From assembly GCF_058153355.1 (NCBI RefSeq), contig NZ_CM177019.1: 64,000 bases of DNA; one strand, written 5' to 3'. Within the stretch, counting starts at the first letter, position 1. Each line of letters opens with the position of its first letter. The notes under the pieces are model-generated. The model saw only the letters and a list, made by a program, of their open reading frames with translations, ran no database searches and had not been told where the DNA came from. Of this stretch, positions 18,627 to 23,843 are shown piece after piece. The position numbers and the translations under genes were made by a program.

Positions 18627-19658
18627 ATGTCTGCATTTACCCCGGCAAGTGAAGTCTTGCTGCGTCACAGTGATGATTTCGAACAAAGCCGTATTCTTTT
18701 TGCCGGAGACTTACAGGATGACCTGCCCGCGCGTTTAGATACCGCGGCCAGCCGTGCTCATACCCAGCAGTTCCACCACTGGCAGGTATTAAGCCGCCAA
18801 ATGGGTGATAACGCCCGTTTTAGTCTGGTCGCCACGGCGGATGACGTCGCAGATTGCGATACGCTGATTTACTACTGGCCGAAGAACAAACCGGAAGCCC
18901 AGTTTCAGTTGATGAATTTACTTTCTCTGCTGCCGGTGGGAACGGATATTTTTGTCGTTGGCGAGAACCGAAGCGGCGTGCGCAGCGCCGAGCAGATGCT
19001 GGCAGATTATGCACCGTTGAATAAGGTGGACAGCGCCCGTCGCTGTGGCCTCTATTTTGGTCGTCTGGAAAAACAGCCGGTATTTGATGCCGATAAATTC
19101 TGGGGCGAATACAGCGTCGATGGCCTGACGGTCAAAACGTTGCCGGGCGTGTTTAGCCGCGACGGTCTGGATGTCGGTAGCCAGTTGCTGCTTTCGACGT
19201 TAACCCCGCACACGAAAGGTAAAGTGCTGGATGTCGGCTGCGGTGCAGGCGTTCTTTCAGTTGCCTTTGCACGCCACTCACCGAAGATTCGTCTCACGTT
19301 GTGCGATGTTTCTGCGCCAGCAGTTGAAGCCAGCCGTGCAACACTTGCGGCCAACGGTATTGAAGGTGAAGTCTTTGCCAGCAACGTCTTTTCTGAGGTG
19401 AAAGGTCGTTTTGATATGATCATCTCCAATCCGCCGTTCCACGATGGGATGCAAACCAGTCTGGATGCAGCACAAACGCTGATTCGCGGCGCGGTGCGTC
19501 ATCTTAACAGCGGCGGCGAGCTGCGAATTGTAGCGAACGCCTTCCTGCCTTACCCGGACGTGCTGGATGAGACATTTGGCTTCCACGAAGTGATCGCGCA
19601 AACCGGGCGCTTCAAGGTGTATCGCGCCATTATGACCCGCCAGGCGAAGAAAGGTTAA
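18627..19658 (+). CDS. rsmC: 16S rRNA m2G1207 methyltransferase
   Basis: 343-aa ORF with SAM-binding [11 protein letters not shown] and NPPFH motifs. Confidence 0.85.
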
Positions 19659-19725: not shown

Positions 19726-19773
19726 AGCCCTGTCGGGTAGCAGCGATTCATTACTGTCTCGCCGCCCCCTAAG

Positions 19774-19807
19774 AACGGTACGTGCGAGTTTCCCCGCATA
19801 CCGCTCA
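19774..19807 (-). other. Group II intron domain V (catalytic hairpin)
   Basis: Minus-strand GAGCGGTATGCGGGGAAACTCGCACGTACCGTTC matches the domain V consensus including the AGC triad and GAAA loop. Confidence 0.7.
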
Positions 19808-19812
19808 AGCCT

Positions 19813-21492
19813 TTATAAGCCTCCACCTTGTGGGAGACCAGCGTCATTACTATGTAGTTGTCGATGGCAGTTGGGATGGAGTAGGACTAAATTGCTCACA
19901 TCATCGCTACCGCCAAGAGATTTCTTGAGCAAATGATGAACATTCCATCCTGTATCGCGATTAATCGGTTGCTCACATAAAGGGCAGCGCGATCCTTGCC
20001 TTTTCCATATAGCGAGAATCCTTTTCTGCCCCTGTTGGGATTTCTTCCATGAGTAGTCCAGCCTTCTTTCGAAGTATGTTTCCCACTCGGGATCATATGG
20101 ATTTGCCGTTCCCTTTATTTTTATATAGCGATTAATATGGATGTCGCTGGCCCGGGACAGAACATATTTCCTACCCTCCGGATCGACTCCATAAAATCGA
20201 CCATGACACATTTTTATTGTCGTGTGGTACTTTCGGAAGATCCATCTCCGGCCTTTGCCGGGATGTCTCCTTCTGCACCACTGCCAGATTTTGCGCCAGA
20301 TTTGGTTGTCGACATAGTTAAATGTCTCTGCCGATGCTACATGTTGGTGATAGTTTGCCCACCCGGTGATGATTGGATTAAGCAGATTTATTAGCACCCA
20401 TGCAGGAACCGTTCGGTTACCTTCAATAGTCTCTCTGATCTTGCTAAGAAATTGTTTAACGTTTTTCTTGGCTGGTCTGATTATGAGTTTTCTACCGAAG
20501 CGTCGGACGTGCTGCCCAAGGAAATCAAATCCGTCAGTAATGTGAGTGATGACCGTTTTCTCTTCGGATAACGTCAGCCCTCTTTCTGCAAGAAATGATT
20601 TCACCAACGGAAGAACATTCTCCTCCAGAAGTTCTTTCGACTTTCCGGAAATGATGAAATCATCAGCATACCGGACGAAGTGAACCTGATGTTTCCTGAA
20701 TGTTTTTGAGCGTTTCGGACCAAAGCGATTTTGCAGCAGTCTTTCCAGTCCATCCAGGGCCATGTTTGCCAGAACTGGAGATATGATTCCTCCCTGGGGT
20801 GTACCCGAGAGAGTTTTGCTGAATATGCTTTTTTCGATGATCCCGGCTTTCAACCAATTACGGAGTATTTGCTTGTCCATAGGAATATTTTCAAGCAGCC
20901 ACTCGTGGCTAATGTGTTCAAAGCATCCTTTAATATCGCCTTCCAGAACCCATTTCGAGGCGTTCCGGGAACTATACATATTACATACCTGTTGAATGGC
21001 GTCAGCCGTACATCGCGCTGGTCTGAAACCATAACTGTTGTGATCTGCATTAGTTTCCGATACAGGCTCCAATCCCAGCAGATGCAGGGCCTGCATTGCC
21101 CTGTCAAGCATGACGGGGATTCCTAATGGTCTTTTCTTGCCATTAGATTTGGGTATAAAAACTCTTTTTAGCGGTAGGGGCTTGTACCCTTTTCGCCTGA
21201 GTTTGAATATCGCTTCCCATTTTGATTCTGGAGTACTCCAGATTTGACCATCAACTCCGGGGGTTTTACGCCCGCTATTTTCCGTAACTCGTTTCACCGC
21301 CAGTGCTCTGGCGCTGAATGAGCGAACCAGCAATCGTTGCAATCTACCGACTGTACGCCATTGCTGGTTACATGCCGCCTTTGCGATTCTTGTCTGTATG
21401 GTTTTAACGTGTTGATGGCATTTCTTCCAGTTAATGGAATGCCAACCTTTTCCGTTGATGACCGCAGTTACATTGTTAGATGTAATTTTCAT
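19813..21492 (-). CDS. Group II intron-encoded reverse transcriptase/maturase with C-terminal HNH endonuclease
   Basis: YADD motif (RYADDFIISG), RT motifs, HNH (HHLLKKSLGGSDDVSNLVLLHPNCHRQLH); likely start at MKITSNN (ORF track starts 21 codons upstream at 21555). Confidence 0.85.
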   Translation of the reverse strand: MKITSNNVTAVINGKGWHSINWKKCHQHVKTIQTRIAKAACNQQWRTVGRLQRLLVRSFSARALAVKRVTENSGRKTPGVDGQIWSTPESKWEAIFKLRRKGYKPLPLKRVFIPKSNGKKRPLGIPVMLDRAMQALHLLGLEPVSETNADHNSYGFRPARCTADAIQQVCNMYSSRNASKWVLEGDIKGCFEHISHEWLLENIPMDKQILRNWLKAGIIEKSIFSKTLSGTPQGGIISPVLANMALDGLERLLQNRFGPKRSKTFRKHQVHFVRYADDFIISGKSKELLEENVLPLVKSFLAERGLTLSEEKTVITHITDGFDFLGQHVRRFGRKLIIRPAKKNVKQFLSKIRETIEGNRTVPAWVLINLLNPIITGWANYHQHVASAETFNYVDNQIWRKIWQWCRRRHPGKGRRWIFRKYHTTIKMCHGRFYGVDPEGRKYVLSRASDIHINRYIKIKGTANPYDPEWETYFERRLDYSWKKSQQGQKRILAIWKRQGSRCPLCEQPINRDTGWNVHHLLKKSLGGSDDVSNLVLLHPNCHRQLHSNDAGLPQGGGL

Positions 21493-22094
21493 ACATGTCA
21501 TCCAAAGAAACCTTCGCAGATGTTTCGCAATTAAAGACCAGATGGAAGTCAGCACGGTTTCCCGTTAAGGCAAATATTGAACCTCTATCCGCACGATTAC
21601 AGTCCGGCTTTCGCTTTTTCCATCCTCCTTTACCCGCATTCTCATCAGTTTGCCTTACGGTGCCCCTGCCACTAGGGCGAGAATTCGGGCTTACCAAGTT
21701 CCGACCAACATACAAAGAACGGGTTAGGTTCTGTCTATCCGCCGGGGGAGTTATTGTCCATGTATTCCCACTACGAACAGGAATAGCCTTACCCCTTACC
21801 TTTTGGTGCAAGCCTATCAGCATCTTTGGCTCGTTCTCTGTTACGACGTTTAACGACAGTTCACTATGTTAACCATACCGCCCAGCCTAGCGCTCTCGCC
21901 GCATGATGCTTGTAGCGATCAGGTTTTCTCACGATTAACTGAAGCAATATTTGCTAAGCTACATTGTCCCAAGGGCTTCAGACAGAGCCGTTACCAGCTT
22001 TGCCTGCCTCAGTAGGCTACAACTAATGGAATAGTTGGTTTTATATAAATAATTTATCAAAACAATATGTTGGACGACTTCTTGTCGCACTCGT

Positions 22095-22200
22095 AGGCCA
22101 GATAAGACGCGCCCGCGTCGCATCTGGCATCTGCACCCAAATACCGTGTCGGATGCGGCATGAACGCCTTATCCGACCTATAAAACCTGCACGTTAGTTT
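22095..22200. repeat. REP/BIME cluster (5' flank of intron): two REP-like units
   Basis: gccagataagacgcgcccgcgtcgcatctggc and gtcggatgcggcatgaacgccttatccgacctat. Confidence 0.45.
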
Positions 22201-22248: not shown

Positions 22249-22276
22249 TTGACGAAAAGCTGAAAACCACTAGAAT
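22249..22276 (+). promoter_or_regulatory. leuQPV promoter (sigma-70; GC-rich discriminator)
   Basis: TTGACG, 16 nt spacer, TAGAAT, then gcgcctcc upstream of the first tRNA. Confidence 0.55.
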
Positions 22277-22317: not shown

Positions 22318-22404
22318 GCGAAGGTGGCGGAATTGGTAGACGCGCTAGCTTCAGGTGTTAGTGTCCTTACGGACGTGGGGGTTCAAGTCCCCCCCCTCGC
22401 ACCA
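22318..22404 (+). tRNA. leuQ: tRNA-Leu (anticodon CAG), copy 1
   Basis: 87-nt sequence gcgaaggtggcggaattggtagacgcg...cttCAGgtg...ggttcaagtccccccctcgcacca with encoded CCA. Confidence 0.9.
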
Positions 22405-22432
22405 AAAACCACGTTGATATTGCTCGCACTGG

Positions 22433-22519
22433 GCGAAGGTGGCGGAATTGGTAGACGCGCTAGCTTCAGGTGTTAGTGTTCTTACGGACGTGGGGGTTCA
22501 AGTCCCCCCCCTCGCACCA
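22433..22519 (+). tRNA. leuP: tRNA-Leu (anticodon CAG), copy 2; one substitution in the variable arm relative to copies 1 and 3
   Basis: Same sequence except gtgttcttacgg instead of gtgtccttacgg. Confidence 0.9.
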
Positions 22520-22552
22520 AACGAGGCGATATCAAAAAAGTAAGATGACTGT

Positions 22553-22639
22553 GCGAAGGTGGCGGAATTGGTAGACGCGCTAGCTTCAGGTGTTAGTGTC
22601 CTTACGGACGTGGGGGTTCAAGTCCCCCCCCTCGCACCA
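22553..22639 (+). tRNA. leuV: tRNA-Leu (anticodon CAG), copy 3
   Basis: Identical to copy 1. Confidence 0.9.
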
Positions 22640-23054: not shown

Positions 23055-23843
23055 ATGGCCTATCGTTCCGCACCGCTCTATGAAGATGTTATCTGGCGAA
23101 CGCATCTCCAGCCGCAGGATCCTGGACTTGCAGAAGCAGTACGGTCGACGATCGCAGAAAATCGTGAACATTTGCTGGAGTTTATCCGCCTGGATGAACC
23201 CGCCCCATTTAGTGCCCTGACGCTGGCGCAATGGTCATCACCGAATGCGTTAAGTTCTCTGTTAGCTGTTTATTCCGATCATATCTACCGCAATCAACCA
23301 ACGATGATCCGCGAGAATAAGCCGCTGATCTCCCTGTGGGCGCAATGGTACATCGGCCTGATGGTGCCGCCATTAATGCTGGCCCTGTTAACGCAGGAAA
23401 AAGCATTAGATGTGTCGCCGGAACATTTCCACGTTGAGTTTCACGAAACCGGACGCGCCGCCTGTTTCTGGGTCGATGTGTATGAAGATAAAAACGCAAC
23501 ACCACATTCACCGCAGCAGCGAATGGAAACGTTAATTAGCAAGGCGCTTGTTCCGGTTGTGCAAGCATTAGAAGCGACTGGAGAAATTAACGGTAAACTT
23601 ATCTGGAGTAATACCGGTTATTTGATCAACTGGTATCTGACTGAGATGAAACAGTTGCTCGGCGAGGCGACAGTTGAATCGCTGCGCCATGCCCTCTTTT
23701 TTGAGAAAACGCTCACTACCGGTGAAGATAATCCACTCTGGCGTACCGTGGTGCTGCGCGACGGCCTGCTGGTGCGCCGCACTTGCTGCCAGCGTTATCG
23801 CTTGCCGGATGTGCAGCAATGTGGTGACTGTACGCTGAAATAG
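23055..23843 (+). CDS. fhuF: Ferric-siderophore reductase FhuF (2Fe-2S, C-terminal Cys cluster)
   Basis: 262-aa ORF ending CCQRYRLPDVQQCGDCTLK. Confidence 0.85.
   Translation: MAYRSAPLYEDVIWRTHLQPQDPGLAEAVRSTIAENREHLLEFIRLDEPAPFSALTLAQWSSPNALSSLLAVYSDHIYRNQPTMIRENKPLISLWAQWYIGLMVPPLMLALLTQEKALDVSPEHFHVEFHETGRAACFWVDVYEDKNATPHSPQQRMETLISKALVPVVQALEATGEINGKLIWSNTGYLINWYLTEMKQLLGEATVESLRHALFFEKTLTTGEDNPLWRTVVLRDGLLVRRTCCQRYRLPDVQQCGDCTLK

Follow-up and report, generated by a model that had tools for sequence, protein, structure and literature searches.

The single-base difference of leuP in the leuQPV array is the common Escherichia coli allele of a tRNA-Leu(CAG) gene

Three nearly identical leucine tRNA genes stand in tandem within the window, the 64-kb stretch of DNA that was analyzed here, and the middle gene departs from its neighbors at one base. 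The initial annotation suggested that this base could be a strain marker or a sequencing error. What, then, does the odd base in the middle copy represent? ARAGORN found exactly three tRNA genes in the window, all of them tRNA-Leu(CAG) on the plus strand, and each scored 48.5 bits against the Rfam tRNA model RF00005, which has a gathering score of 29. When the three genes, each 87 nt long, were aligned, 86 columns proved invariant. The sequences of leuQ and leuV are identical, and the sole difference among the three genes is located at gene position 48, which is T in leuP and C in the two flanking genes. The alignment thus confirms the earlier description of identical first and third copies and a second copy with T in place of C. 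Every copy contains a run of eight Cs in the window (22389–22396, 22504–22511, and 22624–22631). The coordinates of the array and its surroundings are collected in Table 1.

Table 1. Features of the leuQPV locus, in coordinates of the window.
Feature	Position	Strand	Description	Basis
RsmC ORF	18627–19658		343 aa, upstream of the array	Translation used as RsmC query
Group II intron	~19731–22110	-	Complete	Rfam matches and ORF
Promoter-like site	22249–22276	+	TTGACG-16 nt-TAGAAT, ~42 nt upstream of leuQ	Consensus scan, 10/12 matches
leuQ	22318–22404	+	tRNA-Leu(CAG), C at gene position 48	ARAGORN; Rfam, 48.5 bits; alignment; place in array as for K-12 leuQ (b4370)
leuQ-leuP spacer	22405–22432	+	28 nt	Sequence
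Leader-trailer helix, 5' strand	22414–22426	+	TTGATATTGCTCG, in the leuQ-leuP spacer	Conserved across genera
leuP	22433–22519	+	tRNA-Leu(CAG) isodecoder, U at gene position 48	ARAGORN; Rfam; identity to K-12
Variant base	22480	+	T in leuP, C in leuQ and leuV	Alignment; hairpin fold; pair list
G55, partner of the variant base	22487	+	U·G in leuP, C-G in leuQ and leuV	Hairpin fold; pair list
leuP-leuV spacer	22520–22552	+	33 nt	Sequence
Leader-trailer helix, 3' strand	22522–22535	+	CGAGGCGATATCAA, in the leuP-leuV spacer	Conserved across genera
leuV	22553–22639	+	tRNA-Leu(CAG), C at gene position 48	ARAGORN; Rfam; alignment
ORF at the fhuF position	23055–23843		262 aa, downstream of the array	

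The surroundings identify the array. At least 80% of a 501-nt query around the genes was matched in 5,420 of the 5,426 complete E. coli genomes, and the annotation beneath these matches reads "tRNA-Leu (x3)" together with "yjjZ". In K-12 MG1655 (NC_000913.3), leuQ (b4370), leuP (b4369), and leuV (b4368) lie between rsmC and yjjZ/fhuF on the minus strand, which corresponds to the plus strand of the window. The middle gene of the window likewise occupies the center of a three-gene array that extends from rsmC to yjjZ/fhuF, and the matching E. coli records show the same annotated neighbors. It is identical to K-12 leuP at 87 of 87 positions, the T included. K-12 leuQ and leuV carry C at gene position 48, as they do in the window, and the tRNA genes of this array show no difference between K-12 and the window.

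The promoter-like site upstream of leuQ is followed by a G+C-rich stretch, GCGCCTCC, and its position suggests that it is the leuQPV operon promoter, as we presume. A scan of the window revealed no intrinsic terminator-like site inside the array or directly after leuV. This result agrees with the unstructured, Rho-dependent terminator that follows leuV in K-12, where RNase P separates the three tRNAs (PMC2190699). By extension of those findings, leuQ, leuP, and leuV would be co-transcribed from the presumed promoter and then separated by RNase P (PMC2190699). The operon resembles valV/valW in that both consist of tandem, near-identical genes that share an anticodon and are processed by RNase P (PMC2190699). 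Unlike valV/valW-type pairs, leuP differs from its neighbors at one stem position at which pairing is kept.

That stem position lies in the variable arm. Between the anticodon and T stems, 15 nucleotides fold into a hairpin that comprises the pairs G46-C57, U47-A56, C/U48-G55, and C49-G54 and the loop UUAC. The variant base is on the 5' strand of this four-base-pair stem and belongs to its third pair, which changes from C-G to U·G; the initial annotation was therefore correct in describing a variable-arm stem pair turned into a G-U wobble. The same pairing is predicted for both forms of the isolated hairpin, with energies of -5.2 kcal/mol for the C form and -2.3 kcal/mol for the U form, a predicted weakening of the isolated hairpin by about 2.9 kcal/mol. 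Minimum-free-energy folds of the whole tRNA returned no cloverleaf, and their z-scores (-0.61 and -1.42) were insignificant. The structure was accordingly taken from the isolated variable-arm hairpin, the covariance model, and ARAGORN, and the whole-tRNA folds were left out.

Comparison with other species indicates how much freedom the arm has. An alignment of 27 middle genes and their spacers shows the variable-arm stem paired in every cell (100%). The variant pair is UG in 21 of these genes and CG in 6, and the next pair is CG in 24 and UG in 3; the stem varies in no other way than by having either C or U opposite G at these two neighboring pairs. Judged from these sequences, gene position 48 appears to behave as a site that must pair and would accept just C or U opposite G, such that the stem always stays paired. 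The acceptor stem of the same alignment displays a different peculiarity: its 5:68 pair (gene positions 5 and 79; 22437 and 22511 in leuP) is non-standard in all 27 sequences; E. coli has A·C here, and the Lelliottia/Huaxiibacter group has C·C.

Both the C and the U form exhibit the hallmarks of a class II tRNA-Leu, namely, a CAG cloverleaf and a long variable arm with a stem-loop. In all three copies, gene positions 14 and 84 are both A, the latter being the discriminator base just before the encoded CCA. Leucine identity in E. coli depends essentially on A73 and A14, and the variable arm is not among the stated elements (PMC9976931). With these two residues and the anticodon unchanged, we infer that LeuRS should charge the U form, which should decode CUG as the C form does.

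The difference between leuP and its neighbors is already known, having been documented in published K-12 work; a tRNA-seq study lists leuP apart from the identical set of leuQ, leuT, and leuV (10.1101/2020.02.21.958157). We found no functional difference of leuP from its neighbors reported in the literature searched. The middle gene, leuP, is very probably an ordinary, already known, and functionally near-equivalent tRNA-Leu(CAG) isodecoder. Its T represents an old, paralog-specific substitution that was inherited by most E. coli and many Enterobacteriaceae rather than a new mutation. Full functional equivalence of the U and C forms is assumed here, and the hairpin of the U form is the weaker one by prediction. 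We share the earlier rating of the difference as minor.

The distribution of the T within the species supports this reading. All 87 nt of the T form match exactly in 4,536 of 5,429 complete E. coli records. Because this count misses carriers of T in which the length of the C8 run is in error, we used the first 70 nt of the T form as a query and found exact matches in at least 4,791 of the 5,429 records (88%). A query joining the T version to the leuP-specific upstream spacer found 4,526 records with an exact match. Its C counterpart, joined to the same spacer, matched 561 records at 99% identity or more, a figure inflated by ~453 records that are without leuP context (coverage below 80%) and match just the 60 tRNA bases. 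About 8% of E. coli records are without leuP context, and C-C-C arrays account, by an approximate estimate, for 2–3%. The order C-T-C was read in five diverse E. coli: 2017-02-2CC, E-ge-1, BL21, O145:H28 RM12581, and the ST131 strain uk_P46212.

Several strains depart from this order. O157:H7 EDL933 and strain 109 contain a single gene that has the upstream flank of leuQ and the downstream flank of leuV, and strain 1324KP contains two genes, the first of which is a leuQ/leuP fusion with C. Full C-C-C arrays are found in STEC367, w264, and O55:H7 CB9615. An MG1655 assembly (NZ_CP025268.1) also reads C-C-C but has a run of nine Cs in leuV, and its C-C-C reading may be an assembly error. In 25DN, T is present in both leuP and leuV and the C runs are shortened, while leuP of O111:H8 strain 8B keeps T at position 48 and has an additional C26-to-T change. 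The C-C-C, fused, and collapsed arrays indicate that recombination between repeats occasionally homogenizes or deletes copies. In addition to T48, which both keep, the middle genes of O111:H8 8B (GACGTGC) and E. albertii (GATGCGC) each have a C-to-T change on the 3' side of the D stem. The C8 run, the main indel hotspot among E. coli tRNA genes (PMC8510543), is miscounted as 5, 6, 7, or 9 Cs in several public "complete" assemblies.

The T extends well beyond E. coli. A 27-mer of the T form was used to scan one genome per species and matched at least 120 stretches; such a scan retrieves just T-containing loci, and the species are phylogenetically non-independent. The retrieved loci were re-annotated, and the arrays were read in transcription order. 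The matches listed come from Escherichia, Salmonella, Citrobacter, Klebsiella, Raoultella, Enterobacter, Kosakonia, Pantoea, Morganella, Proteus, Xenorhabdus, Photorhabdus, and others. Among the 45 three-gene arrays in the matches listed, 35 read C-T-C and represent 13 named genera, which include Salmonella, Citrobacter, Klebsiella, Raoultella, and Kosakonia. Eight others read C-C-T (Lelliottia, Huaxiibacter, Trabulsiella, Pluralibacter, and relatives), one reads T-T-C, and one begins C-T and has a third variable arm that was unparsed (Entomohabitans). The two-gene arrays listed read T-C in Xenorhabdus and Photorhabdus and C-T in Proteus and Morganella.

A second location of the T form is leuT. 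E. coli leuT encodes the same tRNA species as leuP, but it has the C form, as do leuQ and leuV; the gene belongs to an operon other than leuQPV, and its processing depends on RNase E (PMC2190699). Among the matches listed, leuT carries T in 40 argX-hisR-leuT-proM operons from other species, including Escherichia whittamii and members of Klebsiella, Citrobacter, Enterobacter, Raoultella, Morganella, and Xenorhabdus. These operons make E. coli unusual in having just one T copy. In five of the retrieved loci, from Lelliottia, Huaxiibacter, and relatives, other array copies have U at the neighboring stem position (GUCU...GGAC), and the loop variants UUAAC and UUUAC also occur in other copies of arrays from this group. 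These changes show that the family contains several isodecoder variants of the variable arm that preserve the wobble.

The age of the arrangement can be gauged from rsmC, which neighbors the array in 58 of the listed loci. At fourfold-degenerate sites, rsmC of non-Escherichia Enterobacteriaceae is 43–56% identical to that of the window, and the corresponding value for Morganellaceae is about 28–44%. Such low identity alongside a retained C-T-C order indicates that the C and T states have been held far longer than neutral sites, a comparison that carries the caveat that the leuQPV spacers are unusually conserved and the whole operon evolves slowly. The persistence of two states in fixed gene positions suggests that homogenization by gene conversion or unequal recombination would be infrequent and possibly mildly disfavored. 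Among closer relatives, rsmC of E. albertii is 93.0% identical to the window in nucleotide sequence, and that of E. coli SCPM-O-B-8794, a GTDB representative, is 92.9% identical. Either rsmC is unusually divergent among E. coli, or the record belongs to a separate species cluster.

Comparison of the spacers revealed a helix that brackets just leuP within the array. It is formed by the leader and trailer of the leuP pre-tRNA and consists of 13 pairs with one bulged G. In the 27 sequences compared, which come from many genera, 91% of its cells are paired and four pairs change on both sides; Pseudocitrobacter shows a matched deletion of a G and a C.

It is tempting to speculate that the U·G form is a specialized isodecoder kept by selection for its stability or turnover, its order of processing, its modification, or its sensitivity to tRNA-targeting nucleases. 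Both forms coexist in Enterobacteriaceae, in Morganellaceae (Proteus, Morganella, Xenorhabdus, and Photorhabdus), and in Pantoea, and the T occupies the middle gene in 35 of the 45 listed arrays, although fourfold sites of rsmC are near saturation. The T keeps this place even though conversion and deletion events occur within E. coli. The predicted weakening of the U-form arm and the conserved helix that surrounds leuP alone point in the same direction. If the U·G form were selected, its weakened arm would give distinct turnover, processing linked to the helix, or reduced recognition by tRNA-targeting nucleases. T-even phage infection was reportedly found, around 1970, to cleave host tRNA-Leu1, a finding that the literature searched did not confirm. 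A pattern that outlasts neighboring neutral sites would, as far as the compared sequences indicate, be fitted better by weak selection for both forms than by strict neutrality.

Other observations argue against specialization. The variable arm is not one of the leucine identity elements stated for E. coli (PMC9976931), and whole lineages of the species, such as O157:H7 and O55:H7, are without the T form. The slow evolution of the entire operon means that persistence may reflect general constraint combined with rare conversion, and the scan on which the distribution rests is biased to T-bearing loci from species that are not phylogenetically independent. For these reasons, we regard a specialized U·G isodecoder as improbable. 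The same low standing applies to its historical form, in which selection would have held the U·G isodecoder at fixed positions (the middle of leuQPV and, in many genera, leuT) from a time before Enterobacteriaceae and Morganellaceae diverged.

Far less likely is that the T arose recently, as a SNP that only this strain or clade possesses. The locus is polymorphic in E. coli, as illustrated by the one-gene, two-gene, and C-C-C arrays and by the C26-to-T change of O111:H8. However, the T is the majority state (about 88%) and is common to distant phylogroups and to other genera, so the informative event is its loss rather than its presence. The proposal of a strain marker is thus refuted: T is the typical state of the species and the family, and the rarer states, C-C-C and collapsed arrays, are the potential lineage markers in E. 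coli. The idea that the T is an error and that leuP really has C at 22480, like leuQ and leuV, hardly merits credence: tandem near-identical repeats are error-prone in assemblies and several public ones contain obvious C8 homopolymer errors, but the comparison with other E. coli leuP sequences proposed in the initial annotation finds the T in K-12 MG1655, BL21, O145:H28, ST131, and at least 4,791 of 5,429 records, it recurs in the middle copy of 13 named genera and in the literature, and an assembly error would need to recreate the species-typical allele exactly. Its presence in the same gene copy of thousands of independent assemblies and of other genera establishes that the T is real.

A real strain marker lies nearby. 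The window differs from K-12 by a group II intron in the intergenic region between rsmC and leuQ. The intron is flanked by rsmC and a REP-type element, lies about 280 bp upstream of leuQ, and includes domains D1–D4 (21891–22038) and domain V/VI (19732–19808), both matched by Rfam, and a 580-aa ORF (19813–21555). At this chromosomal site, the intron is absent from all 5,426 complete E. coli genomes; in the same search, a copy with 97.1% identity was found only on two plasmids, NZ_AP045798.1 and NZ_CP010124.1, where it is annotated as ltrA. A minus-strand Rfam match to naRNA4, a REP/BIME-type element, separates the intron from the leuQ promoter region (22096–22178; 66.5 bits). The distance between rsmC and leuQ differs between E. 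coli strains, and REP/BIME-type elements are probably the source of this variation.

The finding on leuP itself matters very little. The window contains the standard E. coli allele, and neither annotation pipelines nor readers should flag its T. Loss of the T and collapse of the array, which were seen in the sampled O55:H7 and O157:H7 strains, could serve as simple lineage markers. The C-T-C order, kept across genera in which neutral sites are saturated, provides a natural case of two isodecoders that resist the homogenization of a tandem array.
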